Under the pieces are notes generated by a model, which worked only from the letters and a program-made list of their open reading frames with translations, did no database searches and was not told where the DNA came from. The position numbers were made by a program, and so were the translations under genes. Positions 589 to 53,034 of a DNA stretch of 64,000 nucleotides are shown here, piece by piece. Position 1 is the stretch's first letter. Every line of letters begins with the position of its first letter. Location of the stretch: the NCBI GenBank assembly GCA_016926955.1, contig JAFGNN010000080.1, positions 12,483 through 76,482 on the forward strand, in the 5' to 3' direction. The stretch comes from Spirochaetales bacterium (lineage in GTDB: Bacteria > Spirochaetota > Spirochaetia > Treponematales > UBA12059).

Positions 589-2244
<1,656 letters not shown>

Positions 2245-2295
2245 GTCTTTCCGCGCGCGCGGCGTGGCCGCGCGCGCGGACTTGCGCTGTCAAAC

Positions 2296-2340
2296 GAGCG
2301 CCCCCGTCCGGGATCCGGGCGGGGGCGCTCGCATTTTTTC
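2296..2340 (+). terminator. rho-independent terminator after gpmI
   Basis: Hairpin GAGCGCCCCCGTCCGG/CCGGGCGGGGGCGCTC followed by T6 (2334-2339). A second GC hairpin lies at 2250-2280. Confidence 0.7.
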
Positions 2341-2345
2341 CTGGC

Positions 2346-2936: not shown

Positions 2937-2999
2937 GGTCAGGGAGCATATAACGTTCCGGAGCGAAACACAGCCCCTCCGCGCTCGCGGTCCGGCGGT

Positions 3000-3374: not shown

Positions 3375-3503
3375 CCAAACCTCCGAATATTCGAGTATTT
3401 AGAAAATAAGCATATGCTCATAACAGGTCAATAAGGAAAGCGCGTATCGATGCAGTCCGGATCTCTTGCGTCGGGACAAGCCACACCGTGTATACTCGAA
3501 ACC

Positions 3504-17965: not shown

Positions 17966-18403
17966 ATGAACATCGAATTCCGGGAGATCGACGACGACAA
18001 CTTCGACGAGTGCGTGGCCCTCGCCGTGCGCGAGGACCAGCCCTTCGTCGCGTCCAACATGAAATCGCTCGCTCAGGCGTACATCAACCATCGTGCGGTG
18101 CCGCGGGCCATCTATGTCGAAGGTGCGATGGTCGGCTTCCTCATGTACCTCGTGGACCGCGGCGGGGGCGAGCTCTACCTCTGGCGTTTCATGATGGACA
18201 AGGGCCGGCAGGGCAAGGGCTACGGTACCGCGGCCCTCGGACTCCTCGAGCGCATCGCGCGGGCAGAGCCCGGTGTCGTCCGCCTGAGGCTCGGCACTTC
18301 GCCGGACAACGCGAACGGCATCAAGGTCTACACGAAATTCGGCTTCGTCGATACGGGTCTCCTCGAAGACGGCGAAGAGGTGTTCGTGAAGGAACTCAGG
18401 TAG
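17966..18403 (+). CDS. GNAT-family N-acetyltransferase
   Basis: The acetyl-CoA binding motif RQGKGYGTAAL, and the FGF motif of KFGFV near the C-terminus. Confidence 0.85.
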   Translation: MNIEFREIDDDNFDECVALAVREDQPFVASNMKSLAQAYINHRAVPRAIYVEGAMVGFLMYLVDRGGGELYLWRFMMDKGRQGKGYGTAALGLLERIARAEPGVVRLRLGTSPDNANGIKVYTKFGFVDTGLLEDGEEVFVKELR

Positions 18404-18423
18404 GGGACGGAATTCCGCGCTCC

Positions 18424-19074
18424 GTTTCGATTCCCTCAGCGCTAAGAATGTTGAACACCGCCATTCGGCGGCGTTCTCCGGTTGGGCGCTGAGGGAATCG
18501 CCCTCCGGCTTTCGGCATGCGTCGCTGCGCGCCGCTTTCGGGGATGAGGGGATTGACGTGCCCGCTGTGGCGGGCGACCTCATCCTGCCTCAAGCCTCCG
18601 GGCCGCCTGCGCGGCTTGGGCCGACATGCGTCGCTTCGCTCCGCTTTCAGAGAGGTAATGATTCACGTGCCCGCTTGCGCGGGCGACCTCATCCTGTCGG
18701 CCCATCCTCGACCCGTCCTCAAACGATCGGACAGGTCGAGGACCGCCGCTCCGTTTCAAATCCCTCAGCGCCCCGATTGAAAAAGGCCGCCTTGCGGCGG
18801 CCTCGGTCGTGGGCGCTGAGGGAATCGCCCTCCATGCCTCGGCTTCCTGCCTCGGCTTTCCGGGCCGCCTCGTCGCCTTCGCGCGCCATGCGTCGCTACG
18901 CGCCGCTTTCGGAGTGGAATGGATTGTCGTGGTCGCGCTCCGCGCGACCTCCTCATCCTTGGCGCGCGATCCGCCCGACGCGCTGCGATGTCTCGCGCGT
19001 CGGACGGATCGGCGACTCGGTTCGAATCCCTCAGCGCCCCGATTGAAAAGGCCGCCTTGCGGCGGCCTCGTTGG
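18424..19074. repeat. array of tRNA-Val-3'-end-derived inverted repeats and ~72-nt structured sub-repeats
   Basis: Three compound hairpins: CCCTCAGCGC(CC)...inner GGCCGCC/GGCGGCC stem...GGGCGCTGAGGG at 18431-18497, 18760-18825 and 19021-19090. Three diverged ~72-nt copies (18516-18587, 18625-18696, 18887-18960) all start CATGCGTCGCT and end CCTCATCCT. Confidence 0.85.
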
Positions 19075-19116
19075 TGGGCGCTGAGGGATTCGAACCCCCG
19101 ACCTACTGGGTGTAAA
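19075..19116 (-). repeat. distal att-like direct repeat (copy of tRNA-Val 3' part)
   Basis: The 42 bp TGGGCGCTGAGGGATTCGAACCCCCGACCTACTGGGTGTAAA are identical to 34185-34226, in the same orientation. Confidence 0.95.
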
Positions 19117-19310
19117 TCGTGCTACCGGCTTGGAACGAAAATGTGGCGTCATGAATAAAGTATTGTAAATAAAGCACTTGCAATCAAGCGGATATGAAAT
19201 GAAATGAAACGAAGGGCGCGAAAAGTCGAGAAAACGGGCGATTTTCAGTAACAAATTCAGTAACACGGGGCAGGGCTCGTAAGGATTGACACAACCTACA
19301 ATGGGTAGTG

Positions 19311-19648
19311 TTAATCGAATACGAAGATGGCTTCCTTCGCCTTGAGAGCGAAGCCTTCAAAGAGCAGCTTCTTGACCGCCGGGGTGAACCAAATACCGTG
19401 GTAGACGGTGTAACGGTTTGACTGCGTATCAAAGCCCCCCCGCGAGGCGGGCGTAAATACTCTTCCTGATCAAGCCTGCTCAGGACATAGATGGGCGACT
19501 CCAGCTTATGGCCGTCCCGGTTCGTGGCATGGTCTTCGGAGCTAATGATCCGCTTGCCATAGGAGACGCCGACCTCAAGGTCATAGGTCAATGCGATGAA
19601 GAACGAGTCGAGTCGGCGGGTGAGCCAGCAAGTTCCCACTTCTCCCAA
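19311..19648 (-). pseudogene. small hypothetical gene interrupted at a G7 tract
   Basis: TTG-start ORF (GEVGTCWLTRRLDSFFIALTYDLEVGVSYGKRII...) turns into Ser/Arg/Pro-rich junk after the G7 run (C7 on the + strand, 19435-19441). The frame reached by adding one G reads FDTQSNRYTVYHGIWFTPAVKKLLFEGFALKAKEAIFVFD* and ends at 19311. Confidence 0.45.
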
Positions 19649-19710
19649 AGTAGTCTCATCCTGTGGAACCTCGAATAATTGGATCCGGGAATGGTAGGAC
19701 AGAAACGGAC

Positions 19711-21180
19711 TCAGCGACAGGTTCGCGTCAGGACCTCATGAAGCCTCACCATTGCGAGCGTGTCGAGACCGCAGTAGTCCCTGAGTGCCTTGGCAAGCGA
19801 AGCCTTGCGATCCGGATCCTGCGTCGAAATCAGCTCGGCCCATGCGACCTGGGCATCCTCGCCGTTGCCGACCTCGAGTCCGTCGTAGCCGAGCTCCGGG
19901 CAGAGTACGGGCAGGACGTGCTTGATCGAGCTCGAGCCCTTGAAGGCGGGGTCGAAGTAGTGCTTACGGAAGATATCGAGAAGGTCGACGAACCTGGGCT
20001 GGAACAGGTTGAGGGGCATGGCGAACTCTGGGAGGAATGTAGCGAGTTTGCCGATCACGCTTTTCTCGAAGCTGGCGTTATAAGCGACGATGGAACCGGA
20101 TGATCCGATCTGAGCCAGCAAGGTACGGGCGATCGCGGGGCGGGGATCGCTCAGGTCCTGGTGAAGGAAGCCCGGCGTTTCCTCGAGTCGGCCGTCCTCG
20201 TGGAGGATGTGTAGCGAGAACTGGAACGGAATGCTGCCGAACGGTCCGAGCCCTTCAAGCCGGGGCAAGGCAGGTGCATCCGTCTCGAAGTCGAGGAAGT
20301 GGATCGGATACACCAGCCGCTTGAGCCAGGTGCGGATGCCGTCGACATCGATCTCCTTCGTCCCGGAACGATGGAGCCTCAAGAAGCGCTCACCTTGCGG
20401 TCCGAGCTCGGCGTCAGCCGGGACGTCCTCGAGTGCGAGGATGCCGCGTTCGATGAGGGCGTCGCGTTGTTCGGGATGCATGTGCGGAATGTCGAAAACC
20501 GACGGATCGGGCAGCATCCAGAGTCCGTCGCAGTAAGGACGGAACGGGCACTCGTAGGGCTTCGCGCAACGCGTCCCGAGGTGGACCGCGGGCTCTTGCG
20601 GATTGTCGAGTACAGCCTTCAACTCGGCGAGCTTGCCGGCGACCTCGGGCAGGTGTCGGCGAACGGGATCGGTGAGGTCGGCGAGGGAAAAGAGGTTCGA
20701 GAGGTCCGGGTAACGACAGCTCGTGTTGAGGTGCATGAGGACGGCCCTGCGGATCGGCAGTCCCGAACCTTCGTAGACGTAGGTCTGCACAGCGAGGTCG
20801 AGAATGTGTTCGGGCTTGGGGCCGGTGTTCGACTTCACCTCGTAGACGTCGAAGGATCCGTCGTCGTTCCGGGACAGCACGTCCGCGCGGGCGATGGTGT
20901 CGTCGTGGATGAAACAGGGCTCGAAAAGGACGCGAGCCCCGGCGGAAAGCGCCTCGGTCGTTTCGGTGAGGGCTGCACGCCATTTTAGCGGATCTTCGGA
21001 AATGAGGATGCCGCCAGGAAACCGTTCGCGCGCGAGGCGGCCGACCTCGTGGCCTTGCGAGAAAACACGGGCCCGGGCCGGGGATGGCGGCGGGAGCAGG
21101 TCACGACGATGCGTTTCGAGCCAAAGGCGCTTCGGGCATTGCCGTCCGACGAGGTACTTTGATTTTGAGAGTGTGGTCAT
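19711..21180 (-). CDS. DUF2779-type protein: N-terminal Cas4-like PD-(D/E)XK nuclease with 4 Cys, plus C-terminal DEDD-like exonuclease domain
   Basis: N-terminus LSKSKYLVGRQCPKRLWL. Nuclease motif D...FDVYEVKS. Cys triad CAKPYECPFRPYC. The C-terminal half has IHFLDFETD, AYNASFEKS and YCGLDTLAM acidic motifs. Confidence 0.75.
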   Translation of the reverse strand: MTTLSKSKYLVGRQCPKRLWLETHRRDLLPPPSPARARVFSQGHEVGRLARERFPGGILISEDPLKWRAALTETTEALSAGARVLFEPCFIHDDTIARADVLSRNDDGSFDVYEVKSNTGPKPEHILDLAVQTYVYEGSGLPIRRAVLMHLNTSCRYPDLSNLFSLADLTDPVRRHLPEVAGKLAELKAVLDNPQEPAVHLGTRCAKPYECPFRPYCDGLWMLPDPSVFDIPHMHPEQRDALIERGILALEDVPADAELGPQGERFLRLHRSGTKEIDVDGIRTWLKRLVYPIHFLDFETDAPALPRLEGLGPFGSIPFQFSLHILHEDGRLEETPGFLHQDLSDPRPAIARTLLAQIGSSGSIVAYNASFEKSVIGKLATFLPEFAMPLNLFQPRFVDLLDIFRKHYFDPAFKGSSSIKHVLPVLCPELGYDGLEVGNGEDAQVAWAELISTQDPDRKASLAKALRDYCGLDTLAMVRLHEVLTRTCR

Positions 21181-21255
21181 CCAGTATCTCCGCTGTGCGA
21201 TAGTTCACTTCGCACTGTTTCGGGTTGGCCTCCATTTTTTTCCGGCGGTGATCGG

Positions 21256-21885
21256 TCAGCGCCTGAAATCCTCGCGGTTCCTTCCGACCAGATCAGTGAA
21301 GTAGTCGGCAACCGCCGCGTACTTGCTCTTGTCCACCAGTCCGATCAGTTCTTCCCATTCGAGGACGATGAAAGGTTGTTTGGATTCTCGCGAATAACCT
21401 AAAAGCCGATGGTAATTGCTATCCGGATGGTTCGCCGCCTGCATCACTGCCGTGTGCTTCCGCCTGGTCAGGAGAAGTGCTTGGATGACGTTGATCTGAA
21501 ATTTATCCCTGAGTATCTTGATGCGCTCCGCATTGGCGGTGATATCCTTATCGAAGTTCCAGTCCGTGAGGAATTTTGCCTCGATGGCGATGACCGAGCG
21601 ATTCGCCAAGTCCTCGATCAGGATATCTGCCAATTCACCCTTATCGGATGAATTTTCCAGCAGATAGGAATGGTAGTCGAACGAGGCAAGCAGAGTACCG
21701 TCGAAGTTCTCAAGCTTGAACGTGCTGCCGGATTCTAGAAGCCTCCGGTTGAGCAGCAGGCGCAAAGCTTGCGTCCTGGATTGGTAGCCATCCACGAGCT
21801 CATTCAGGAAGAACCCGGCGAAGAACTTGTAGTAGAGATTCCGTTCTTTCTCCGATTCAAACAGCATCGTCTTATCGAAGATCAT
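21256..21885 (-). CDS. hypothetical protein with PD-(D/E)XK-like motif
   Basis: ELADILIEDLANRSVIAIEAKF fits a D-x(n)-E-x-K nuclease core. ATG 21885 follows a GAGGGGAG RBS. Visibly lower GC than neighbouring genes. Confidence 0.5.
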   Translation of the reverse strand: MIFDKTMLFESEKERNLYYKFFAGFFLNELVDGYQSRTQALRLLLNRRLLESGSTFKLENFDGTLLASFDYHSYLLENSSDKGELADILIEDLANRSVIAIEAKFLTDWNFDKDITANAERIKILRDKFQINVIQALLLTRRKHTAVMQAANHPDSNYHRLLGYSRESKQPFIVLEWEELIGLVDKSKYAAVADYFTDLVGRNREDFRR

Positions 21886-21936
21886 GGCAACTCCCCTCTT
21901 TGTATTGTCAGATCGAGTTTCAAGGAACGACACAAA

Positions 21937-22779
21937 TCATGTCTTGCGAATAAGCGCTACAAACCTGTCCCCCTGCTTCTCAAACCCGTCGACCGACTCC
22001 GCCGCCTTCTCGAGACCGGCAAGCACCTCGGCAAGGATCGATGGGAGCGGTGCGTAGCCGCCTTCGGACTTGGTTCGCTCGAGCGCGGCTTCGACGATGG
22101 GCGGGATGCCGACTTCGTCCCAATCGCCCGAAGGGAAGAAGACGAGGTCGCCGCGTTCGAGCGGCAGCTTGAACGCTTTCCAGCCTCCCTGCATTTCGAT
22201 CATCATGGAGGGCATCATGCCGAGTGGGGGACCTGAGACCAGCTTGAGCTTGCGGCAGGACTTCGTGTCTTCGCGGTAGAGGTATGCGTCTGGACCGCCG
22301 GCGGAGAGCCAGGCCGATTCCCCCGATTGGGATATGACGCCGAGGCCGAGCATGGCGAAGCGCCCGGGAAGACGGCGTTCGAGGAGCGCGTCGTTGTGTT
22401 CCTCGACGAAAGCCTTGAGCTCCCGCGCTCCGGCGTTGGGCTTGAAGCGCTCCGAAAATCGGGCGGCGAGATCCTGGGATTGGAAGGCCGGAACGAGTCC
22501 CCGTCCCGAACATTTGAAGAGCCCGATGGCTCCGCCCCGTTCCGGACCGGGCAGGACGAAGGAAGCCGAGGAAACTTGGTTGGGCAGGACGAGATGGATA
22601 CCCGCCTCGAAAGATCCGAAGGAAGACACCGCGTGCGCCTGCGTGCCGTCGCCCGACGGTTCGGCGCCGAGCAACCTGAGCTGCAAAGCCGCAAGCTGCT
22701 CCACGTGCTCGGGGCCGAAGAGATTCGGGCCGGATGCTGTCCCATTGACCGGTTCCACGGTGCCGTCTTCATCGTGCAT
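21937..22779 (-). CDS. SpoIIE/PP2C-like domain protein with degenerate catalytic motifs
   Basis: Four collinear blocks match the SpoIIE/RsbU pattern: GLFKCSGRGLVPAF (expected DVSGHGxxAA), LSAGGPDAYLY (expected nAGHpPpll), SGPPLGMM (expected g.pLG), and ERGDLVFFPSGDWDE (expected pGD.lllyTDG..E). ATG 22779 follows a GAGGAG RBS. Confidence 0.55.
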   Translation of the reverse strand: MHDEDGTVEPVNGTASGPNLFGPEHVEQLAALQLRLLGAEPSGDGTQAHAVSSFGSFEAGIHLVLPNQVSSASFVLPGPERGGAIGLFKCSGRGLVPAFQSQDLAARFSERFKPNAGARELKAFVEEHNDALLERRLPGRFAMLGLGVISQSGESAWLSAGGPDAYLYREDTKSCRKLKLVSGPPLGMMPSMMIEMQGGWKAFKLPLERGDLVFFPSGDWDEVGIPPIVEAALERTKSEGGYAPLPSILAEVLAGLEKAAESVDGFEKQGDRFVALIRKT

Positions 22780-26402: not shown

Positions 26403-28571
26403 ATGGATCTCGTATCGAACGAAGACAACTTGGGGCCGCTCAAGGCGCGGATAGCGGAGTACGCGGGAAGCGACGCGAACCGCGACGGCGAGGTGCTGAT
26501 AGGCTCGGGCTGGATACAGTCCGACTACTTCAAGCGGATATTCCCCGACGAGGTCGTCGCCGGACTTGCGGCGCGCGGCATCGGCGTCCGGGTCCTGCTC
26601 CGCGTCGGGAGCCCCACCGACTTGAAGATTTCCGACCTGGCCTTGTTCCGCGCGATGGTCTCGATGCGGCGGAAGGGCGTACGGACTTCGCTCCGCTTCT
26701 CGCGACATCACCATGCCAAGCTCTACGTTGTCGGTTCGGGCTACGCGATGCTCGGCTCCTTCAACCTCACCTCAGGCGGCTTCGGCGACGAAGACCGGCA
26801 CGGGAAGAACCCCGAGGCCGGCATCGCGACCACGGCCAAGGGCGAGGTCAAGGCGGCCGCCGCGCGCTTCGAGGCGATGTGGGCGGAGGCGGACGAGCTC
26901 GCGGACTCGCTGGCCGGGTTCGTCGCCAACGAGTCGGAAGACTCGGGCTTCTGGATGATCGGCGTGCGCGAGCTGCCCGCCGGCATGTTCGTCCAGGTGA
27001 AGGTCGGGGAACGGATCGTGCTCGGGAAGGTGGAGCGGAGCCTGCGCTACCGGCGCGACTTCTTCGGGGCCGACCGGGAATCGATCCTCGCCAATCCCTT
27101 CATCTTCGAGCAGTTCGGCATCGCCAAGCCCGCCCGCGAAATAGGCGGGATCAACCCGGTCGCGCTGAACGGCGTCGCGTCCGCGGGCAACGTCGACGCC
27201 CAGCTCGAGATCGCCCGGGTCAAGGCCATACGGAGTATCGAACCAAAGCCGGATGGCGGCCTCTCCTACGAGGCGTCATCGTTGCCTCCGCAGGTCGGCG
27301 CGGAGGTGCACGAGGCCGACCCCGCGCTGTTCAGGACGATGTTCGACCCCGCCGCCTGCGGCCGGCCCTACGCGACGCTCCGGGACAACCGCGAGATCGC
27401 GGTCTCGTTCGCCCCAGAATCCATGCTGGCCATGCACAGCGCCGTGCTCGGCGCCACCGGATCGGGGAAGTCGCATTTCATGAAGCGCTACCTCGCGGAC
27501 TTCCTGGCCCCCTATAACGAGTCGACCTGGAAGGGGCGCGTCGTCATCGTCGACACGCACGGCGAATACGGCGACTTCCTAGACGGGGCGGGGCTGGCGT
27601 ACGCCAACCTGGATTTCAAGACGGGAGAGCGCCTGGGTTTCGACGCGCCGCTCGTGGAGACGCTCGACGACTTCGTCGACCTCTACGACTTCAAGCCCGA
27701 CCGGAAGCTGAAGCGCCGCATCGTCGAGGCGCTGGCCATGAAGGACAAGCTCGACCAGGATACGTTCGTGCGCATCCTCGAGGAGGCCGCCTCCGACGAG
27801 GCTCGGCTCGACGCGATGCAGTACGTGGCCGATATTCTCGACAGCGAAGGCGAACCGGAAGTCGCCGAGGAACTGGTCAAGGAGTTCAAGAAGGCGCAGG
27901 ACCGTATCGCGCGGGCGAACGCCGTCTTCGACAAGAAGCGAAGGGCGGTTGCCATCGCGAACGTGCACAAGGAACTGGCCGACAAGGTGCTCAAGACCTA
28001 CGGTTACGGCAATTCCGAAACGCCGGCGCAGAAAGTCATCGCGGCCATCCAGCGCGACGGAATCCGCTTCGACCGGCTCGACTTCCTTCCGCAGCTGAGG
28101 AAGCCCGGCCTCTACCGCCTCGACCTGCGTCAGACGAGCGACCGGGAGACGCGGCAGGCCGTCGCGGGCGAGCTCATGGGGCAGATCTTCGAGGAAGCGA
28201 AGCGGACCGGCAAGTTCAACACCCTCTTCATCGTCGACGAGGCACAGAACTTCGCGCCGCAGGGGGAAGGGAAGTCCGTGCCCTCGAAGCGCGCCATGCG
28301 CATCGTCGCCTCGGAAGGCCGCAAGTTCCGCGTCGGACTCATGATCGCCACGCAGCGCCCCGCCTACGTCGACAAGGACGTCCTTGCGCAGTGCAACAGC
28401 CAGGCGATCTTCCGCCTCATAAACAACCTCGACATCGCCCAGGTCGAGAATACCGTCGAAGGCATCTCGAAGGTCGACCTCGACCAACTGCCGAATTTCG
28501 TGGCGGGCGAGGCCTTGTTCACCGGCGTGGCGATGACGATGCCGGTGAGGGTGAGGGTGGCACGCAGCTAG
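26403..28571 (+). CDS. PLD-family nuclease / HAS-barrel / HerA-type (DUF87) ATPase fusion protein
   Basis: HxK..GSxN motif: RHHHAKLYVVGSGYAMLGSFNLT (aa 101-123). HAS-barrel-like segment: MFVQVKVGERIVLGKVE. Walker A GATGSGKS (aa 350-357), Walker B LFIVDEAQNFAP, and IATQRP. Confidence 0.8.
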   Translation: MDLVSNEDNLGPLKARIAEYAGSDANRDGEVLIGSGWIQSDYFKRIFPDEVVAGLAARGIGVRVLLRVGSPTDLKISDLALFRAMVSMRRKGVRTSLRFSRHHHAKLYVVGSGYAMLGSFNLTSGGFGDEDRHGKNPEAGIATTAKGEVKAAAARFEAMWAEADELADSLAGFVANESEDSGFWMIGVRELPAGMFVQVKVGERIVLGKVERSLRYRRDFFGADRESILANPFIFEQFGIAKPAREIGGINPVALNGVASAGNVDAQLEIARVKAIRSIEPKPDGGLSYEASSLPPQVGAEVHEADPALFRTMFDPAACGRPYATLRDNREIAVSFAPESMLAMHSAVLGATGSGKSHFMKRYLADFLAPYNESTWKGRVVIVDTHGEYGDFLDGAGLAYANLDFKTGERLGFDAPLVETLDDFVDLYDFKPDRKLKRRIVEALAMKDKLDQDTFVRILEEAASDEARLDAMQYVADILDSEGEPEVAEELVKEFKKAQDRIARANAVFDKKRRAVAIANVHKELADKVLKTYGYGNSETPAQKVIAAIQRDGIRFDRLDFLPQLRKPGLYRLDLRQTSDRETRQAVAGELMGQIFEEAKRTGKFNTLFIVDEAQNFAPQGEGKSVPSKRAMRIVASEGRKFRVGLMIATQRPAYVDKDVLAQCNSQAIFRLINNLDIAQVENTVEGISKVDLDQLPNFVAGEALFTGVAMTMPVRVRVARS

Positions 28572-28765
28572 TAATCCTCGAAAATAAACAGTCTGGAAAG
28601 CCGTGCCAACATCTGTGCTTGGAAATATATGTGATGAAAAGGAGAAAGGTGAGTGTTGAATCTTAATAGCAAATAATGCATAGCCGTATTTGGGCAGAGT
28701 TGACTGTTTGAATTTGAAGACGATGATGTATTCAAAGATTAGCATTTCCAGAAGAAGGAGTCGTG

Positions 28766-29299
28766 ATGCGTCCTTACAGAAGTATCGACTTGGATGAAGC
28801 GCTGGTCATTGATGAGATTGAGCGGTATCGCCAGGGTATGGAGCTTGGGAATTGCGACTTCATTACTTTTATTCCCACTAGTCCTCGGCAGGAAGGAGTG
28901 GATATTCTCTATTTTAAAAGCCCCATCTATAAGACCATCCAGGTGAAGGGATCACGGGTTTATGATAACCGCAGTAGTCTTCCGACAGCATGGATCGTTC
29001 TACCGGACAAGTATTTCTCAAAAAAAACCTGTCCTGCCATCGACTTCTTTGTTTTTGTCTTCCATGTAGTAGTAGGTGGAAAGCATAAGCCCAAATTCAC
29101 TCAGGAGTATTTGGTGGTTCCGTTTGCTGATATGGATTCATATATAGTAACAAATGGGATTAAATCATCCGGTGGCAAGTATCATTTTGCGTTCGAAATC
29201 GATTTGGCACGAAAGTCTATAATCCAAGTTCGACATAAATTGGTTGCCTTGAGCTCGAGCAACTTCACAAAATACTGGAACAATTGGAGTCAGCTTTGA
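28766..29299 (+). CDS. hypothetical protein, Mrr-like PD-(D/E)XK candidate
   Basis: AT-rich 177-aa ORF with an AAGGAG RBS. GVDILYFKSPIYKTIQVKGS fits a D-x(n)-Q-x-K restriction-endonuclease-like core. Confidence 0.5.
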   Translation: MRPYRSIDLDEALVIDEIERYRQGMELGNCDFITFIPTSPRQEGVDILYFKSPIYKTIQVKGSRVYDNRSSLPTAWIVLPDKYFSKKTCPAIDFFVFVFHVVVGGKHKPKFTQEYLVVPFADMDSYIVTNGIKSSGGKYHFAFEIDLARKSIIQVRHKLVALSSSNFTKYWNNWSQL

Positions 29300-29660
29300 T
29301 TGGATAGCTCTGTCTTGAACTTTTGGTTGTGTCCAGTTAAAAGATAATAATACCGATAAGGTAATTCGCGGCTCGATGGGTGCTTTCGACCGAATTACCC
29401 GAGCAGTATCGGGTGACGAAATATATAGTTGGAGCGCTTGAGGTAAGGTCGGAAAGCTCGATCTAAAAGTCTGAAGGCGAGAGCCGCATCCTGAGGGGGG
29501 CGGCTCTCGCTAAAAGGTGGTAGTTACGAGCTCTCAGCTCCTGAGCGGATCTGTCTGCCGTTCGGGTGATTTGGGCCGGATTTGGGGCCGGATCACATCA
29601 TCTTGTGACATGGGGCTAAACAAAACCGAGGCTGTTCTGATATTACAATCGGGATAGGAA

Positions 29661-30893
29661 TCAAGGCCGGACAACCCGGAATCCGAAATCTTGGACCTGG
29701 GCGGGGGGATAGTAGTGGAATCGAAAAGCCAAGGCGCAGAAAGATGAATCGTTGCCCCAGCTACCTCCGCTCGCGATACGCTCCGTGCCCGAATCCGCCC
29801 CCCGGTAGTCCGTAACCGTACCTGTGGGGTAGTCGCCATACCAGTCCCAAGTCCATTCAAACACATTGCCGCTCATGTCGTAGAGCCCAAGCTCGTTGGC
29901 GCCCGCCGTTTTACTGCCAACGGGATTACTTCTTTCCGTATCGGTCCTTCCAGTTTCGGTTTGGTAATAACCAAAGACGGCATAGTCACCTATTGTATTG
30001 CTCCCGGTGCTCCCTGCAAAAGCTTTTAGGTAACCTGTGGTGTTTATTGCTCCGGGATCGGCAGTATCAGCACCCATGGCTGCCCAGAGCCATTCCATCT
30101 CCGTCGGCAAGCGATAACCATCGGCATTCCAATTGGCGGTTGCCGCATCCCAAACGGCCTGCAAAGCTGGATCAGCGAATCCGGTTGGTATTTGCGGGAA
30201 AGTAAGGGTTGTGAAATCCACTCCACTCACCTCATATACAGGTGTAAGGTCTTCGGTTATGCTCAGCTTGTTGCAGAAAGCAATGGCGTCGTACCAGCTC
30301 GTCATCTGTACAGGGTCTGTAGTGCCGCTTGAGTAGGTCGGATCACTCGGATCTGTAGAGAAAACCGCCGCAAATTGCTCCCTCGTAATTTCATGCGTAC
30401 TTATGCGATATGGTGACGTTATGACGCTGATATTGCTGGCCGTGGCATCCCTTTGAAACCTACCAGCAGGCACGAACTTCAAGATGCCGATATTGGGCGA
30501 ATCGTAATTCTCGCCCCAGGTGGCAGGGAAAACCGCGGTGACCACGCCCGAATCAGCCGGGTTCGAGACGCTCGAAGCCCCTTCAACCTCGAAGAAGTCC
30601 CCGGCAACGCCGGTCAGCGTAAAGCCGGACTTGGGTGTCAGCGTGATGGTAGCGGTATATACCGTGCTGGCTGCAAAGGTAGCCGGAGAGCCGTTCCACG
30701 TGACAGTTCCGGTATACTGGATGGTCTCGGCAATCGCCGTTACCGGGGTGGCGCCATAGACCGGCGCGCTTACTCCATGTATGGCGGCGATGTCGATCAC
30801 CGCATCTGCTGCCGGAGTAACGGGGCTTTGGCATCCAACTAATGAAATAACAGTAAACGCCAGCAGCATCGTGTGCCTCAGTTTTCTATTCAT
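29661..30893 (-). CDS. lipoprotein with FGE-sulfatase (SUMF1/PvdO-type) domain
   Basis: Signal peptide with lipobox (VISLVGC). C-terminal YRLPTEMEWLWAA, GLYDMSGNVFEWTWDWY and GGSW motifs of the formylglycine-generating-enzyme fold. Confidence 0.8.
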   Translation of the reverse strand: MNRKLRHTMLLAFTVISLVGCQSPVTPAADAVIDIAAIHGVSAPVYGATPVTAIAETIQYTGTVTWNGSPATFAASTVYTATITLTPKSGFTLTGVAGDFFEVEGASSVSNPADSGVVTAVFPATWGENYDSPNIGILKFVPAGRFQRDATASNISVITSPYRISTHEITREQFAAVFSTDPSDPTYSSGTTDPVQMTSWYDAIAFCNKLSITEDLTPVYEVSGVDFTTLTFPQIPTGFADPALQAVWDAATANWNADGYRLPTEMEWLWAAMGADTADPGAINTTGYLKAFAGSTGSNTIGDYAVFGYYQTETGRTDTERSNPVGSKTAGANELGLYDMSGNVFEWTWDWYGDYPTGTVTDYRGADSGTERIASGGSWGNDSSFCALAFRFHYYPPAQVQDFGFRVVRP

Positions 30894-31273
30894 TTTCTGG
30901 CTCCTTGAATGGGAAAATGACTAAAGGCTTAAGGAATATTGTATCCATTGAGCCTGTCGTCCATTGCATCGGACAGTTTATTGTAGGTCACATTATTAAA
31001 GGCCGCAAATTCCGGCATGTCGAATTACTCATACAGTCTCGATCCGCTAGCCCGTCTTTCTCAAGGAAGTATTGCCAACCATCGGGAGGGGGGTGAAAAC
31101 CGGACCGCAACCAATAGATGGCTTTGGGGAAGGTGTTTGGCACAAGTGTTCATCTCTTCTCGGAATGACCAACATGCCGGGCAGTAAGTCGCAAGAGTGG
31201 GACAAGGTCTGGATCGGAGTCCTCACCGAGCTCGAATTGACGAGTACTAGGGTCTCTGTGCCAGTCTGGGTCT

Positions 31274-31897
31274 TCACATTATATCAAATGAATGTTTAGA
31301 AAGATCCTCGTGGAGATCGATATCCCTTACATGCAAAGTGATGTTGGTTTCAGAGATATCGCTAAACACAATATTTGGACTAAATCCCATCGCCTGTTCG
31401 ATGACATCGAGCATCGCTTTTTCATAGTAGAGAATATTGCCTCGCTTGAGGCTGTCATGGATTTCATAGTTACCATTGCCTAGATTAATAATGGTGTATG
31501 GGCTTATTACGTCAACCCCATATTGCGAATATGCATCAGCTAAGTATCGATCGCTGATGTTGTTATGACCGATTCCTGCATAGGCAGTCACACCTGACTT
31601 ATTGGAATCACCATTTGAAATGCTTTGAAGATTACTGATTTCCACGTTATTGATCCTAAGATTTCTTTGCATCCACTCAAGTTTTCCATATTTCAACTCA
31701 CATAACAGCCAATCATGGTCATCTTTAGTGAATTTGCTGTGGTTGCTGTCTATATAACTTATACAGTAGCAGTTAATGATCATTCCCTTTAAGTGCTTTT
31801 CGGCACTTTTACTTGTGATTTCTCCTCTGAGCTGAGTTTCGAAATCATTAAGGCTAGAACAAATCTGGCTAATTAAGGACTGGATGGTATAATTCAT
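31274..31897 (-). CDS. hypothetical protein (AT-rich)
   Basis: 207-aa ORF with normal composition in a strongly AT-rich segment. No family recognised. Confidence 0.45.
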   Translation of the reverse strand: MNYTIQSLISQICSSLNDFETQLRGEITSKSAEKHLKGMIINCYCISYIDSNHSKFTKDDHDWLLCELKYGKLEWMQRNLRINNVEISNLQSISNGDSNKSGVTAYAGIGHNNISDRYLADAYSQYGVDVISPYTIINLGNGNYEIHDSLKRGNILYYEKAMLDVIEQAMGFSPNIVFSDISETNITLHVRDIDLHEDLSKHSFDIM

Positions 31898-32241
31898 GTT
31901 CTACTCCTCTTTGCAAGAGAAACAGGTATCAGCGGTTTTGATACTACCCGCGTAGTATCAATCATCAATCGACGGGCCACAAGTAAAAAATAAAACTGCG
32001 TGATGTCGAACCGCGCTTCATGCCTCGTGCCGTCGGCCAGTTCGATCTCGACGAGGTCGAGCCAACCATCGGGGGCGCGGGGCATGAGGCGCTGGCTCAC
32101 GAACTTCCAGTCCCGGTCGCGTTGGCCGAATCGCTGTTCCAGGTACTCGTACTCGAGCGGGACGCCAGTCGCGGAGTCGGGCGCGTGGATGACGACGAAA
32201 TCGCCTTTGTCCTCGAAGCAGGGTGCCGGTCGATTCGTCAT
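31894..32241 (-). CDS. hypothetical small protein translationally coupled to the DUF5131 gene
   Basis: Its ATG overlaps the DUF5131 stop (ATGA at 32238-32241). The GC-rich body (MTNRPAPCFEDKGDFVVIHAPD...FDITQFYF) runs into the AT-rich segment, so the last ~30 codons are probably not native. Confidence 0.45.
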   Translation of the reverse strand: MTNRPAPCFEDKGDFVVIHAPDSATGVPLEYEYLEQRFGQRDRDWKFVSQRLMPRAPDGWLDLVEIELADGTRHEARFDITQFYFLLVARRLMIDTTRVVSKPLIPVSLAKRSRT

Positions 32242-34184: not shown

Positions 34185-34226
34185 TGGGCGCTGAGGGATT
34201 CGAACCCCCGACCTACTGGGTGTAAA
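34185..34226 (-). repeat. proximal att-like repeat within tRNA-Val (anticodon loop to discriminator)
   Basis: Identical to 19075-19116. Confidence 0.95.
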
Positions 34227-34258
34227 CCAGCCGCTCTAACCAGCTGAGCCAAGCGCCC
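34185..34258 (-). tRNA. tRNA-Val (anticodon UAC)
   Basis: The reverse complement folds as a cloverleaf: GGGCGCT/AGCGCCC acceptor, GCTC/GAGC D stem, GCTGG-TTTACAC-CCAGT anticodon arm, GGGGG-TTCGAAT-CCCTC T arm, discriminator A. CCA is not encoded. Confidence 0.93.
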
Positions 34259-37949: not shown

Positions 37950-38066
37950 ACCACGGAGACACGGAGGCACGGAGCCAAGAGGGAGAAGACCAGGACTGGA
38001 ATCGGGAATCCTGATTTTTATCGTCTCTTCCTCCCTCCTTACTCCTCCTCTCCGTGCCTCCGTGGT
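37950..38066. repeat. MITE/REP-like palindromic element, copy 1
   Basis: Terminal inverted repeats ACACGGAGGCACGGAG (37959-37974) and CTCCGTGCCTCCGTGGT (38050-38066). Purine-rich left arm, pyrimidine-rich right arm, and a central GAATCCTGATT core shared with copy 2. Confidence 0.8.
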
Positions 38067-38086
38067 CTTCTTGTTGATGTAGCCTT

Positions 38087-48578: not shown

Positions 48579-48888
48579 TCTGTTCCTCCTTAGAGCGATG
48601 CGGCGCGGTCCGCGCCGGCCTTAAGGCCCCTGCGGACCGTCCGAGACCATGATAACGCCGCCCGCCCGCCAAGTCCAAACCGATCGTCCGGGGCCGGGCG
48701 GCGGCGCGCCTGAAGAATCTTCGGGAATCCGCTCGCCCTCGCTTGACAGGGCTCCGGAGGGGTACTATATCGTGTATCCATCGGACAAATGCCTACCACC
48801 GATGGTATGGTCCGTATAGCAAGAAGGATACCAACTCGACCATGCACGCCACGATTTGCTCAAGGAAAAACACCCGAGGAACGATACG

Positions 48889-49359
48889 GTGAGGTGTCCG
48901 CACTGCGGCTCGCTGGACGACCGCGTCCTCGACTCCCGTACCCTCGCCAACGGCGAGAGCACGAGGCGCCGCCGCGAGTGCCTCTCGTGCGGCTTCCGCT
49001 TCACCAGTTACGAGCGCATCGAGGAGCGCCCCCTCATGGTCGTCAAGCGCGACGGCCGGCGCGAACCCTTCGAGCGGGCCAAGCTGGCGCGGGGCATCGA
49101 GCGCGCCCTCGAGAAGCGGCCCGTGTCGCGCGACACCATCGAGAACATCATCAACGAGATCGAGGACCAGGCGGCCATGGCCGGCCGGGGCTCGGACGAG
49201 ATCGTGAGCCAGGCGCTCGGCGAGATGATCCTGGCGCGGCTCTACGAGCTGGACAAGGTCGCCTGCGTCCGTTTCGCCTCGGTGTACCGCAAGTTCGAGA
49301 CCCTGGACGAATTCCTCAAAGAGATAGAACGCCTGGCGGGAGCGCCGGGGCCCGCGTGA
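48889..49359 (+). CDS. nrdR: transcriptional repressor NrdR
   Basis: Zinc ribbon (V)RCPHCGS...CLSCGFRFT followed by an ATP-cone (VVKRDGRREPFERAKL). GTG 48889. Confidence 0.9.
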   Translation: MRCPHCGSLDDRVLDSRTLANGESTRRRRECLSCGFRFTSYERIEERPLMVVKRDGRREPFERAKLARGIERALEKRPVSRDTIENIINEIEDQAAMAGRGSDEIVSQALGEMILARLYELDKVACVRFASVYRKFETLDEFLKEIERLAGAPGPA

Positions 49360-49409
49360 AAAGCCCGGCGTCGAGCGGCGGGATGGAAGGATCGGGGGGG
49401 GAGCGGAAA

Positions 49410-51509
49410 ATGGAAGGCGAGCAGTTCTTCCCGGAGTGGCGGAGCCTCCTCGGGAACGCGGTCGGCGGGGAAAGCGGACCCGTCGTCCGTCAGGTCGTCA
49501 AGCGGTCGGGACGCGTCGAGCCCTGGGACGCGTCCAAGATCGTCATGGCGATCGAAGCGGCCTTCCGGGCGACCACGGGCCTCGACGGAGGCGGGAAGGC
49601 GGAGACCATAGCCGCCGACGTCGAGGCCCGCCTGGGCCTGCTCATGGCCGGGCGCCACCGGAACTCGATCCCCGCCATCGAGGAGATCCAGGACCTGGTG
49701 GAGACCGCCCTCATCGAGGCGAAGGAGGTGGCGGTCGCCAAGGCTTACATCCTCTACCGCGCCCGCCACGAGGCCATGCGCGACACCAGGCGCCTCATGC
49801 TCGACATCGACGCCACCATGGACGGCTATCTGGGCCAGGGCGACTGGCGGGTCAAGGAGAACGCCAACGTCAACTACTCGCTCGGCGGCCTCATCCTCCA
49901 CAACTCGGGCTCGATCACGGCGAACTACTGGCTCAAGAACGTGTACCCCGAGGAGATCGCCGAGGCGCACCGCAACGCGGACTTCCACATCCACGACCTC
50001 TCCATGTTCTCCGGCTACTGCGCCGGCTGGTCGCTCCGCGCCCTGATAGCCGAGGGCCTCGGGGGCGTGCCGGACAAGATCTCGTCGAAGCCTGCGAAGC
50101 ACCTCTCGACCCTCGCGCAGCAGCTGGTGAACTTCCTCGGCGCCCTCCAGAACGAGTGGGCCGGCGCCCAGGCGCTCTCGAGCTTCGACACCTACCTGGC
50201 GCCCTTCGTCCGCGCCGACCGTCTCTCGGAGTCCGAGGTGAGGCAGGGCATCCAGAGCTTCCTCTTCGGCGTCAACACGCCGAGCCGCTGGGGCTGCCAG
50301 GCGCCCTTCTCGAACGTAACGCTCGACTGGACCTGCCCCCCGGACCTCCGCGACCGGCCCGCCGTGGTGGGCGGCGAGGAGCGGGACTTCACCTACGGCG
50401 ACTGCCAGGCGGAGATGGACCTGGTGAACAAGGTCTTCCTCGAGCTCATGCTGGAAGGCGACGCCGAGGGCCGCGGCTTCCAGTACCCCATCCCGACCTA
50501 CAACGTCACCGAGGACTTCGACTGGGACGGGGCGAACGCGAAGCTGCTCTTCGAGATGGCGGCCAAGTACGGCACGCCGTATTTCCAGAACTTCCTCAAC
50601 TCGGACCTCGACCCGAACGACGTGCGCTCCATGTGCTGCCGCCTCCGCCTCGACAAGCGCGAGCTCCGCAAGCGCGGCGGCGGACTCTTCGGCTCCGACG
50701 AGCTCACCGGCTCCATCGGAGTCGTCACGCTCAACCTGCCTCGGCTCGGGTACCTGGCCAAGGACGAGGCGGACTTCATGAAGCGCCTCTACCGCCTGAT
50801 GGGCCTGGCGGCGACGAGCCTCACGATGAAGCGGAAGGTCTGCGCCCGCCTGCTCGAGGCGGGACTCTTCCCCTACACGCGGCGCTGGCTGCCCTCCTTC
50901 GACAACCACTTCTCCACGATAGGAATTTGCGGCATGCACGAAGCCTGCCTCAACCTCCTGGGCAAGGGCATCGACGAGGCGGAGGGAAGGGCCTTCGCCC
51001 TCCGCGTGCTCGAGCGCATGCGCCAGCGCCTCCAGGACCTGCAGGTCGAAACCGGCGAACTCTTCAACCTCGAGGCCACGCCGGCGGAGTCCACCTCGTA
51101 CCGCCTGGCGCGGCATGACAAGGAGCGCTGGCCGGACATCGTCGCGTCCGGCGAGGCGGCCCCCTACTACACCAACTCGACGCAGCTGCCGGCGGACGCC
51201 GACATCGACCTCTTCGACGCACTCGACCACCAGGAGGACCTGCAGGCCGCGTACACGGGCGGCACGGTCTTCCACGTGTTCCTTTCCGAGGCCGTGGAGG
51301 ACTGGCGCGCAGCGCGCGAGCTCGTTAAGTCGGTGGCCTCGAACTACCGCGTGCCGTACTTCACCCTGTCGCCGACCTTCTCGGTCTGTCCGGTGCACGG
51401 CTATCTGTCGGGCCATCACGAATTCTGCCCGAAGTGCCGCGACGAGAAGCGCCGCGCCATCGCGGAGGAACTGGAAAAAGCCAAGGCCGAACTGGCCGCG
51501 CTGATATAA
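49410..51509 (+). CDS. nrdD: anaerobic ribonucleoside-triphosphate reductase, large body lacking the glycyl-radical motif
   Basis: ATP-cone (VVKRSGRVEPWDASKIV). Class III RNR blocks (NANVNYSLGG, FHIHDLS, RSMCCRLRL, TPAESTSYR). Zn site CPVHGYLSGHHEFCPKC. The ORF then ends in a helical tail (RDEKRRAIAEELEKAKAELAALI*) before any RxxGY motif. Confidence 0.85.
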   Translation: MEGEQFFPEWRSLLGNAVGGESGPVVRQVVKRSGRVEPWDASKIVMAIEAAFRATTGLDGGGKAETIAADVEARLGLLMAGRHRNSIPAIEEIQDLVETALIEAKEVAVAKAYILYRARHEAMRDTRRLMLDIDATMDGYLGQGDWRVKENANVNYSLGGLILHNSGSITANYWLKNVYPEEIAEAHRNADFHIHDLSMFSGYCAGWSLRALIAEGLGGVPDKISSKPAKHLSTLAQQLVNFLGALQNEWAGAQALSSFDTYLAPFVRADRLSESEVRQGIQSFLFGVNTPSRWGCQAPFSNVTLDWTCPPDLRDRPAVVGGEERDFTYGDCQAEMDLVNKVFLELMLEGDAEGRGFQYPIPTYNVTEDFDWDGANAKLLFEMAAKYGTPYFQNFLNSDLDPNDVRSMCCRLRLDKRELRKRGGGLFGSDELTGSIGVVTLNLPRLGYLAKDEADFMKRLYRLMGLAATSLTMKRKVCARLLEAGLFPYTRRWLPSFDNHFSTIGICGMHEACLNLLGKGIDEAEGRAFALRVLERMRQRLQDLQVETGELFNLEATPAESTSYRLARHDKERWPDIVASGEAAPYYTNSTQLPADADIDLFDALDHQEDLQAAYTGGTVFHVFLSEAVEDWRAARELVKSVASNYRVPYFTLSPTFSVCPVHGYLSGHHEFCPKCRDEKRRAIAEELEKAKAELAALI

Positions 51510-51517
51510 AGAACGAA

Positions 51518-51643
51518 ACCACGGAGGCACGGAGCGAGGGAGGGAAGAGGGAGCGATGGACGGGACCGAGTCGGGATTGATGGTTTTCGAATCCTGATTC
51601 CGAATTTGGTTGCCCGCTCCTCTTCGCTCCGTGCCTCCGTGGT
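51518..51643. repeat. MITE/REP-like palindromic element, copy 2
   Basis: Terminal inverted repeats ACCACGGAGGCACGGAG (51518-51534) and CTCCGTGCCTCCGTGGT (51627-51643), with a central GAATCCTGATT core. Starts 9 nt after the nrdD stop. Confidence 0.8.
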
Positions 51644-51679
51644 GGATGTTTGTGAGGCTTTTTTTTTTGGGGGGGGGAG

Positions 51680-52300
51680 ATGGAGAAGGGGGAGCTGGAG
51701 GCGAGGATCGCGGGGCTCGAATCGGAGCTCGCGGCGGTCGAGGGGACGCGCACCGAGGTGTACGCGCGCATCGTGGGCTACTACCGCTCGGTGCGGAACT
51801 GGAACGCGGGCAAACGCGAGGAGTTCTCGCGGAGGCGGCCTTGGGTCCTCGGAAAGGAAGCTCCCGGCGCCCGGATGGTCGTCGCCGGCGCATTCCGGGA
51901 GGCCGCGCGCGAGGCCGCCGAGCCCGCCGCCGTCTACGCGGCCGCCCGCCCGGCCGGGGCCGCGCCGTCGCTCCGCGCCGCGCCCGCGCTCAAGGACCTG
52001 GTCGGCGCCGCGCCGCGCTACGGCGACGAGGTCCCGCGCGGAGAGGGCGAGGTGGCGGAATACACGGTCTATGTGCGCGCGACCTGCCCGGGCTGCCCGC
52101 CGGTCAAGGCCTTCCTCGCCGCCTCGGGCCTGCCGGGGCGCCTCGTGGACGTCGACGCCGAGGAGGGCCTCCGCGAGGCGTTGGCGGCTGGCGTCATGTC
52201 CACGCCGACCGCCATCCTCGCCGACGGCGAGGGGCGGGAACTCACCCGCGCGCGCTCGGTCCAGGAGCTCCGCTCGACCCTGATGCCCGTGCTGGCCTAG
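51680..52300 (+). CDS. NrdD glycyl-radical module fused to a thioredoxin-fold CPGC domain
   Basis: An N-terminal helical segment is followed by EVYARIVGYYRSVRNWNAGKREEFSRR, the class III RNR glycyl-radical signature. The C-terminal ~80 aa (YVRATCPGCPPVKAFL...VMSTPTAIL) resemble the small thioredoxin-like protein at 12534-12785. Confidence 0.7.
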   Translation: MEKGELEARIAGLESELAAVEGTRTEVYARIVGYYRSVRNWNAGKREEFSRRRPWVLGKEAPGARMVVAGAFREAAREAAEPAAVYAAARPAGAAPSLRAAPALKDLVGAAPRYGDEVPRGEGEVAEYTVYVRATCPGCPPVKAFLAASGLPGRLVDVDAEEGLREALAAGVMSTPTAILADGEGRELTRARSVQELRSTLMPVLA

Positions 52301-52341: not shown

Positions 52342-53034
52342 GTGATCACGCGGCTCGGCCTGCAGCGGAGCAGCCTGGCGGACTATCCGGGGGCGCTGGC
52401 CTGCGTCCTCTTCACGGTCGGCTGCGACTTCCGCTGCCCCTGGTGCCACAACCCCGAGCTTGTGGAACCAGAGCCCGGCGACCCGGGCCTCCTGCCCGTC
52501 GGGGAGGTCCTCGGCTTCCTCGACAAACGGAAGCGCGTCCTCTCCGGGGCCGTGCTCTCGGGCGGGGAGCCCTGCCTGCACCCCGACCTGCCGCGCCTCG
52601 CGGACGCGGTCAGGAAGCGCGGCCTCAAGGTCAAGCTCGACACGAACGGATCCTTCCCCGACGCGCTCGCGGAAGTCCGGGCCGACTATGTCGCCATCGA
52701 CGTGAAGGCACGCGCCGCCGACTACCCGAAGCTCGCGCCCCTTGTGCCGGACGCAGCCGAGCGCGTGGCCCGCTCGCTCGGGTGGCTCAGGTCCTCGGGG
52801 ACGCCCTTCGAGGTCCGCGTGACGGCGGCGCCCGGCTTCGTCGACCCGGACACGGCGGCGATCGTGGCCGAATTCCTCGAGGCGGACGACGAGGTGGTCC
52901 TGCAGCAGTTCCGTCCGCTCCGCACCCTCGAAAGCGCCTGGCAAACAGTTGAGCCCCACGGCGACGCGGCCCTGGCGGAGATACTCGCGGCGCTCAAGCA
53001 CCGTTCGCCGAAGGCCCGGCTCCGGGGCGGCTGA
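52342..53034 (+). CDS. nrdG: anaerobic ribonucleotide reductase activating protein (radical SAM)
   Basis: CDFRCPWCHN radical-SAM cluster motif and GVVLSGGEP-like SGGEPCL. GTG 52342. Confidence 0.85.
   Translation: MITRLGLQRSSLADYPGALACVLFTVGCDFRCPWCHNPELVEPEPGDPGLLPVGEVLGFLDKRKRVLSGAVLSGGEPCLHPDLPRLADAVRKRGLKVKLDTNGSFPDALAEVRADYVAIDVKARAADYPKLAPLVPDAAERVARSLGWLRSSGTPFEVRVTAAPGFVDPDTAAIVAEFLEADDEVVLQQFRPLRTLESAWQTVEPHGDAALAEILAALKHRSPKARLRGG

Follow-up and report, generated by a model that had tools for sequence, protein, structure and literature searches.

In a 64,000-nucleotide stretch of a Spirochaetales genome (contig JAFGNN010000080.1, hereafter the window), we identify with high confidence a conserved two-gene class III ribonucleotide reductase (RNR), in which the glycyl-radical loop of the anaerobic reductase NrdD is encoded apart from the catalytic barrel. 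Four co-directional genes occupy 48.8-53.0 kb of the window, all of them on the plus strand. The first in the cluster is nrdR, which encodes the transcriptional repressor of RNR genes (48856..49359; Pfam Zn_ribbon_NrdR, E=1.5e-17, and ATP-cone, E=3.5e-21). It is followed by a large nrdD open reading frame (ORF) of 699 amino acids (49410..51509; Pfam ATP-cone and NRDD, NCBIfam NF006126), by a small ORF of 206 amino acids (51680..52300; Pfam NRDD C-terminus and Glutaredoxin), and by nrdG, the gene for the radical S-adenosylmethionine (radical-SAM) activating enzyme (52342..53034; NCBIfam TIGR02495 NrdG2, 154.7 bits against a cut-off of 131; Pfam Radical_SAM and Fer4_12). We refer to the products of the large and small ORFs as NrdD-alpha and NrdD-beta. 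The large ORF, which has a further in-frame ATG at 49383, ends with a TAA codon at 51507-51509, 23 residues past its Zn site (...SVCPVHGYLSGHHEFCPKC-RDEKRRAIAEELEKAKAELAALI, then the stop). The small ORF opens with an ATG at 51680, beyond an intergenic gap of 170 nucleotides (51510..51679) and in an unlike frame (49410 mod 3 = 0, 51680 mod 3 = 2), and closes with a TAG at 52298-52300.

The locus has the NrdD barrel with finger-loop cysteines, the Zn site and the adjoining nrdG gene of a class III RNR, but its glycyl-radical motif, RIVGYYR, is encoded by the following ORF instead of lying at the C-terminus of the barrel polypeptide, where it would be expected. Of the 562 positions of the Pfam NRDD profile, the large ORF covers 1-531 (E=1e-170) and the small ORF 533-560; on the 684 positions of NCBIfam NF006126, the large ORF matches 2-651 (1040 bits, cut-off 548) and the small ORF 648-679. 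Because the two matches abut on the NRDD profile, the NrdD profile is partitioned between the ORFs almost exactly.

The split is shared widely among relatives. Searching with the small ORF gave 942 homologues. The top 120 derive from Spirochaetales or Treponema genomes and metagenomes, all have lengths of 148-227 amino acids, and each matches the NrdD C-terminus, whether or not a redoxin match accompanies it; one Treponema berlinense cluster is present on 304 contigs. Among 1.84 billion cluster representatives, 209 clusters (50% identity) matched the small ORF at E<=1e-10, and the best 150 of them are nearly all 125-250 amino acids long and begin at the N-terminal helix. A scan of one genome per species placed relatives in at least 598 genomes. 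By record title, the best 80 of these are all Spirochaetota, bar one Collinsella-labelled bin, and they include the cultured strains T. lecithinolyticum ATCC 700332, T. bryantii XBD1002 and T. pectinovorum ATCC 33768. The contig from the odd bin (L009, CAVEBK010000010.1, uncultured Collinsella sp.) bears a typical Treponema-type split nrdD locus and has probably been mis-binned.

From the best 80 genomes we drew 83 loci in which both halves of the enzyme are visible. All 83 are split, none is continuous, and the glycyl-radical loop is found on the large subunit in none. The order nrdR-large-small-nrdG is kept in related loci, with nrdR upstream and nrdG downstream as in the window; T. berlinense and HGW-Spirochaetae-3, for instance, have nrdR, an NrdD of ~700 amino acids, the small gene and nrdG, with gaps of 28 and 76 nucleotides. 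In every one of the 83 loci the large ORF overshoots the Zn-site CxxC by 22-38 residues (median 27), and the small ORFs of the inspected loci start 25-35 residues ahead of the EVY of the loop. Each small ORF has its own ATG, nearly all of them preceded by a GGGAGG-type Shine-Dalgarno sequence, and the gaps range from 11 to 357 nucleotides (median about 100) with no preference of frame (gap mod 3 = 30/25/24). Across Spirochaetota, at 35-84% identity, relatives keep the split, the two helical segments and the redoxin fusion, and the closest metagenome-assembled genome (MAG; L006) has the same large-ORF stop and the same small ORF.

A uniform split, separate Shine-Dalgarno sequences and start codons, and gaps without regard to frame together exclude a pseudogene, an assembly error and frame-dependent recoding. 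An earlier, sequence-only reading of this DNA had left the choice between a two-piece RNR and a recently disrupted gene. The former is supported by the 83/83 split loci, and the latter is refuted by the conservation of the split across the phylum, with the operon order and ribosome-binding sites kept and the catalytic residues invariant. The alignment with orthologues from related taxa that this reading had called for found the split, the helical inserts and the redoxin fusion all conserved, and the intact single-chain NrdD in close relatives by which it would have recognized a pseudogene was seen at 0/83 loci. We therefore consider the genes probably to encode a functional, conserved two-subunit NrdD.

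NrdD-alpha consists, in order, of an ATP-cone, the ten-stranded barrel, the Zn site and a C-terminal helix, with the glycyl-radical loop absent. Its predicted active-site cysteine on strand beta-A, Cys204 (50019..50021), aligns with Cys125 of Thermotoga maritima NrdD (phmmer against 4coi), the residue named in PMC4493059. Conservation was assessed in a 76-sequence alignment of large subunits and unsplit relatives, which is shallow in the region of Cys204, and this residue is not among its conserved columns. The finger-loop motif M408-C409-C410-R411 (50631..50642), of the double-cysteine type with a methionine, aligns with T. maritima SCCR 328-331 and is conserved at >=90%. Invariant across the alignment are Glu555 (51072..51074), opposite T. 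maritima E495 in the 4coi comparison, a residue proposed to donate the proton in thiol-dependent NrdD, and all four residues of a Zn-ribbon-like site, C660, H663, C673 and C676 (CPVHG...CPKC; 51387..51437), which aligns with the C...H...CPVC region of the T. maritima enzyme. One of the predicted Zn ligands is a His instead of a Cys, as in that region, and we infer from the four residues that the site binds metal.

The C-terminal tail of NrdD-alpha (residues 677-699, RDEKRRAIAEELEKAKAELAALI; 51438..51506) was modeled by AlphaFold2 as part of a helix spanning 674-698, with a predicted local distance difference test (pLDDT) score of 86-94. The model of the whole large subunit has a predicted template modeling (pTM) score of 0.70, and Foldseek aligned it to class III RNR structures with template modeling (TM) scores of 0.57-0.73. 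Its finger loop is poorly predicted, at low confidence, as is to be expected because the glycyl-radical loop is absent from the modeled chain. The helix at 674-698 and the end of the profile match at position 531 of 562 bear out the sequence-only reading that the large ORF stops after its Zn site in a helical tail.

NrdD-beta comprises an N-terminal helix, the glycyl-radical loop, a disordered linker and a thioredoxin-fold domain, and was modeled on an alignment of 113 small subunits, in which conservation was also assessed. The N-terminal amphipathic helix (residues 3-21; 51686..51742) has a heptad pattern and was modeled as helical over residues 3-19 (pLDDT 84-90), with L17 and V20 conserved at >=90%. 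The loop (residues 24-53; 51749..51838) matches the NrdD C-terminus in Pfam and NCBIfam, the Pfam NRDD match being residues 25-53, TEVYARIVGYYRSVRNWNAGKREEF. Within it lies the predicted radical site, Gly33 (51776-51778), in RIVGYYR, which is invariant together with its flanking residues. A linker of about 26-107 residues among relatives, predicted to be disordered, separates the loop from the thioredoxin-fold redoxin domain (residues 126-201; 52055..52282; pLDDT 94-98), which Foldseek matches to small thioredoxins and Pfam to Glutaredoxin (residues 129-175). The loop thus sits where the sequence-only reading had placed it, 170 nucleotides downstream and in another frame, behind a second helix and ahead of a CPGC domain.

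The redoxin fold, modeled at residues 127-201, has a beta-alpha-beta-alpha-beta-beta-alpha topology. Both cysteines of its CPGC motif (C136-P-G-C139; 52085-52096) are invariant, as are P176 and T177 of its cis-Pro motif, T-P176-T (52202-52210); the active site reads CPGC in this enzyme and CPNC in 74 of 79 relatives. Among solved structures, the NrdH 4fiw is the closest in sequence (phmmer E=2e-4), and the domain has the thioredoxin fold, CxxC pair and cis-proline of NrdH-type proteins. However, alignment to 4fiw and 1r7h revealed in it neither the WSGFRP nor the CVQC of those two proteins, the latter being the NrdH family signature, and the domain is therefore best called a thioredoxin-fold redoxin rather than an NrdH proper.

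What distinguishes the split enzyme from its unsplit relatives is the pair of helices at the break. Neither is present in the unsplit relatives, where EVY comes four residues after the Zn-site CxxC in 112/116 sequences. In the split enzymes, the large-subunit tail has Leu or Ile at +8, +12, +15 and +22/23, with Lys, Arg or Leu at +19, and the N-helix has hydrophobic residues at -23, -20, -16, -13, -9 and -6 relative to EVY (79 unique pairs), so that both display the 3-4 hydrophobic spacing of coiled coils. A register scan gave a period-7 peak at the offset where tail position +k faces N-helix position -(k+1). Given the four-residue spacer of the unsplit relatives, the bases of the two helices should be adjacent, and any mutual pairing would thus be antiparallel. 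On average the tail carries a net charge of +0.5 and the N-helix one of -1.9, and the two charges are negatively correlated (Spearman rho = -0.40, p = 3e-4; 79 unique pairs, no phylogeny correction). Mutual information between the columns of the two helices was uninformative, being dominated by a variable N-terminal position. The helices had earlier been proposed to be complementary, and the heptad periodicity, the in-register antiparallel hydrophobics and the opposite charges support that proposal. We regard the putative antiparallel coiled-coil tether between the subunits as well supported by these sequence patterns.

These observations suggest an explanation of the locus that we hold, taken as a whole, to be likely. 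The 23-residue tail helix and the ~20-residue N-helix would pair in antiparallel fashion as a two-helix coiled coil. Its anchor would be the point at which the ancestral chain passed from the Zn site into the glycyl-radical loop, and it would keep the loop at the mouth of the barrel. The small subunit would in this way supply the Gly33 loop in trans. NrdG from the adjoining gene would install the radical on Gly33, from where, as in other NrdDs, it would reach the substrate by way of a finger-loop cysteine. After each turnover, the thioredoxin-fold domain on its flexible linker of 60-100 residues would re-reduce the active-site disulfide, presumably formed by Cys204 with a finger-loop Cys, by means of its CPxC, and would itself be recharged by a thioredoxin-reductase-type enzyme encoded elsewhere. 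Mobility of the NrdD glycyl-radical domain is documented (PMC11226230). The explanation also includes a history in which the redoxin was acquired first, which is taken up below.

Both the double-cysteine finger loop (C409/C410) and E555, aligned with T. maritima E495, are features of the thiol-dependent subtype NrdD2. This name was reportedly introduced by Wei et al. 2014. The subtype is defined by a third active-site cysteine and a glutamate at T. maritima position 495 in PMC4493059 and PMC9669993; residue 495 is defined, and the finger-loop motif classes are described, in PMC9669993. Judged by its sequence, the enzyme belongs to the double-cysteine NrdD lineage, and the fused redoxin is a plausible built-in reductant.

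The redoxin fusion that the sequence-only reading had pointed out is indeed present, but split enzymes are not alone in having it. Many unsplit relatives already possess a C-terminal CPNC redoxin, as a junction query and a follow-up search showed, the named ones being mostly Firmicutes (Lachnospiraceae, Clostridia, Erysipelotrichaceae, Enterocloster asparagiformis and Hungatella). The redoxin fusion is therefore most likely older than the fission. One unsplit relative of 802 amino acids, on an unannotated record filed as phage (MT835493.1), has an ATP-cone, an NRDD match over 1-562 of 562 positions, and Grx/Trx domains. The segment that encodes it (L090, MT835493.1 44467-50859) carries nrdG at 37-732, the unsplit NrdD-redoxin gene at 1036-3444 and, directly after it at 3448-4356, a gene for a thioredoxin-reductase-like flavoprotein with a CALCDG motif. 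The adjoining thioredoxin-reductase-like gene is good circumstantial evidence for the fused redoxin as reductant, and the three genes together would form a compact and self-sufficient module for a thiol-dependent class III RNR.

Three other unsplit sequences, P0121 and P0409 from metagenomes and P0393 from a Treponema MAG, have insertions of 26 or 46 residues (AAEERRKMEQ...ILGTRT) exactly at the split site, and may be either intermediates or re-fusions. The simplest order of events would be the redoxin fusion, then an insertion between the Zn site and the glycyl-radical loop, and then the fission. Two further candidates were set aside. P0395 had the appearance of a natural single-chain form, helix-SGGGK-helix, and was rejected: its "loop" is a translated Shine-Dalgarno region. 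On its long-read contig (L089, ena:ERZ21878193 ctg12766l), Iso_dh is in three parts, ATP-cone is in two and Radical_SAM is truncated, and with so many broken genes the fusion is an indel artefact. The case illustrates that lone metagenome proteins are unfit as evidence of gene fusion. P0392, an apparent read-through, lacks an upstream Zn site, and we took it for a frameshift artefact.

Full-text literature searches turned up neither a split NrdD nor a class III RNR whose glycyl-radical loop resides on a second polypeptide. A split NrdD also goes unmentioned in the reviews and phylogenies of RNRs and glycyl radical enzymes that we checked, and in the literature searched the radical glycine lies on the catalytic chain in every described glycyl radical enzyme. 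The single-chain NrdD of the T. maritima / N. bacilliformis type (NrdD2; RNRdb NrdDh; NF006126) has the same barrel, ATP-cone and beta-A Cys, and shares the double-Cys finger loop, the E495-aligned Glu, the Zn site, the NrdG partner and the loop sequence EVY[AS]RIVGYYR..NWN.GK. In that type, however, the loop comes 4 residues past the Zn site, whereas here ~50 extra residues and a chain break intervene.

Several known systems invite comparison, although NrdJa/NrdJb, phage Aeh1 NrdA-a/NrdA-b and GrcA/YfiD are none of them homologous to the arrangement described here. The class II enzyme NrdJa/NrdJb of Pseudomonas aeruginosa and other Proteobacteria is likewise encoded by two adjacent genes in one operon. 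The split enzyme is active, both pieces are needed, and the small C-terminal NrdJb handles thiol-disulfide exchange (PMC4520616); Crona et al. 2015 described it as the only RNR that is split in an organism other than a virus (PMC4520616). It differs in its class, in its split site and in that its small piece lacks the radical-bearing residue. In the class Ia NrdA-a/NrdA-b of the Aeromonas phage Aeh1, a basic C-tail and an acidic N-tail are essential for activity (PMC3045599). As in the spirochaete enzyme, these tails are oppositely charged, stand at the break and are absent from unsplit homologues. The Aeh1 split nevertheless occurs in a single phage and was brought about by mobE, a homing-endonuclease gene resident there, whereas the spirochaete locus has no endonuclease, its tails are helices of regular heptad pattern, and the arrangement has become fixed throughout a bacterial phylum.

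The comparison with GrcA/YfiD made in the sequence-only reading holds as an analogy, but not as homology. GrcA/YfiD is also a small protein whose glycyl-radical loop works in another protein's barrel after the action of the cognate activase (PMC8683613). However, it duplicates a loop that intact pyruvate formate-lyase (PFL) already has, and it acts only after oxygen cleavage, whereas the large subunit here has no such loop; the small ORF, moreover, matches NRDD and not a PFL-type domain. Finally, in redoxin-RNR fusions (Grx::NrdB of Facklamia ignava; NrdH with class Ib), an attached thioredoxin-fold CxxC domain serves as reductant (PMC6187632). Unlike these, the spirochaete domain is carried by the radical-loop subunit of a class III enzyme and has CP[NG]C in place of the CVQC of two solved NrdH proteins. 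Rozman Grinberg et al. 2018 recorded one grx::nrdD fusion only, in a Lachnospiraceae strain (PMC6187632).

A number of observations weigh against the coiled-coil, redoxin-reduced enzyme that we propose. With respect to the helices, their pairing is deduced from patterns in the sequences; the charge correlation ignores the shared ancestry of the 79 pairs; and the lengths of the tail and the N-helix do not covary (rho = 0.16, p = 0.17). The Aeh1 tails are needed for the dimerization of heterodimers and not for heterodimer formation (PMC3045599), and the helices here could thus likewise serve another interface. With respect to the reductant, Met408 is retained in the finger loop, and a methionine at this place has been linked to formate chemistry (PMC9669993), so that formate is a possible reductant and the choice between the two is not readable from sequence alone. 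Nor does the window, or the DNA up to about 4 kb from any spirochaete locus, encode a thioredoxin reductase. With respect to the history, a neighbor-joining tree (283 columns, no support values) divides the split sequences into two groups, among which a few unsplit metagenome fragments are dispersed, and does not tell one fission from several.

Of the other explanations, the one that fares best, which we consider possible but not probable, is that the small protein is an exchangeable spare part like GrcA/YfiD, so that a loop cleaved by oxygen could be swapped and the 78-kDa barrel would not have to be remade. The glycyl radical is the oxygen-sensitive site, YfiD rescues cleaved PFL (PMC8683613), and the whole loop is here carried by a small, cheap protein. 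Yet no large subunit in the 83 loci has a glycyl-radical loop of its own, which makes the small protein an obligate part and not a back-up. The spare-part idea is concerned with selective advantage, and it is compatible with the tethered two-subunit enzyme that we favor.

We think it unlikely that the two proteins make one enzyme in which the loop docks unaided, with the helices serving heterodimer dimerization, NrdG docking or contact with the ATP-cone. Such a role would have parallels in the Aeh1 tails, which are dispensable for the a/b heterodimer but essential for (ab)2 and activity (PMC3045599), and in YfiD, which binds cleaved PFL without a coiled coil (PMC8683613); the missing covariation in helix length would also fit. 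Against it, heptad positions equally far from the split point match up between the two helices with a period of 7, the net charges of the helices are opposite and negatively correlated, and their bases should be adjacent, given the 4-residue spacer of the unsplit relatives, all of which are marks of mutual, hairpin-like pairing.

We see next to no room for a rejoining of the two ORFs by frameshifting, translational bypass, RNA splicing or split-intein splicing. Introns and inteins are often found in RNR genes (PMC3045599), and the gap in the window does fold into a very stable hairpin, but the variable gap lengths, the evenly spread frames and the separate Shine-Dalgarno sequences and start codons of the small ORFs all speak against it. 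No Rfam intron family matches the gap and no Pfam intein/Hint match was found; the extra segments are heptad helices of 22-38 and 25-35 amino acids, and tails of about 25 amino acids are far too short for an intein fold. The hairpin itself belongs to a repeat element with a second copy at 37950-38068 and an orthologous copy in the corresponding gap of L006. A pseudogene, recent lesion or assembly error can likewise be dismissed almost entirely, for although the gap contains the homopolymer runs T10 and G9 and one relative, P0395, is apparently fused, the 83 loci come from independent assemblies and cultured strains and are split at the same site with conserved tails, the stop codon is common to the window and the closest MAG, the homopolymers lie outside both ORFs, and P0395 is itself the artefact.

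The repeat element (51518..51643) is a palindrome of ~125 nucleotides with perfect 20-bp terminal inverted repeats, ACCACGGAGGCACGGAGCGA, and a predicted RNA fold of -87 kcal/mol (z=-6.0). The 170-nucleotide gap is longer than the median because this element sits inside it, and not because of the split. The second copy in the window is located between convergent genes, so that both copies are intergenic, and the family (~120 nucleotides) shares ACCACGGAGGCACGGAG termini and an GAATCCTGATT center. With two copies within 64 kb, it may be akin to miniature inverted-repeat transposable elements (MITE) or repetitive extragenic palindromes (REP). The copy in the closest MAG lies at L006 3766-3891, and the element was not found in the nrdD gaps of relatives other than L006. 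An Rfam search of the gap gave no family above noise, only microRNA-precursor matches that are caused by the long hairpin. At its 3' end the gap reads T10 G9 AG directly before the ATG, a G-rich, Shine-Dalgarno-like stretch. A simple scan called no plus-strand terminator at the hairpin and T10; the element might affect read-through into the small gene.

Elsewhere in the window, a perfect 21-nucleotide inverted repeat (19019-19039 / 19076-19096, up to ~19100) has arms that resemble the T-arm and acceptor 3' end of a tRNA (GGTTCGAATCC...). Its minus-strand copy ends in CCA, and ARAGORN reported no tRNA there. The repeat borders an AT-rich stretch and may be the remnant attachment site of an integrated element. 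The GC content is 58-61% at 18000-22000 and 48-52% at 28000-32000, against about 68% elsewhere in the window, and these low-GC stretches, which lie between the tRNA-like fragment at 19 kb and a tRNA-Val at 34185-34258, look horizontally acquired.

If our interpretation of the nrdD locus is correct, the spirochaete enzyme would be the first split class III RNR and, after NrdJa/NrdJb (PMC4520616), the second split RNR reported in cellular organisms. How the buried glycyl-radical loop leaves the barrel to reach its activase is an open structural question, and a loop carried by a separate 20-kDa protein would make activation, docking and radical transfer separable for study. One attractive, though tentative, possibility is that the small subunit is a detachable and consumable radical cartridge, which is activated by NrdG while free or tethered, plugged into the barrel, able to re-reduce the active site with its own thioredoxin domain, and discarded and replaced after damage by oxygen. 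In that case activation would not require a covalently attached loop to be pulled out of the barrel, the enzyme would be the first of the glycyl radical enzymes to draw its radical cofactor normally from a separate, exchangeable protein, and it would offer a natural system for studying how glycyl-radical domains meet their activases. The widespread occurrence of the redoxin in this NrdD lineage also bears on the question of which class III RNRs use thiols and which use formate. Finally, the hosts of the split enzyme include oral, rumen and gut Treponema, and if it is their only anaerobic RNR, its unusual subunit interface would be a specific target.

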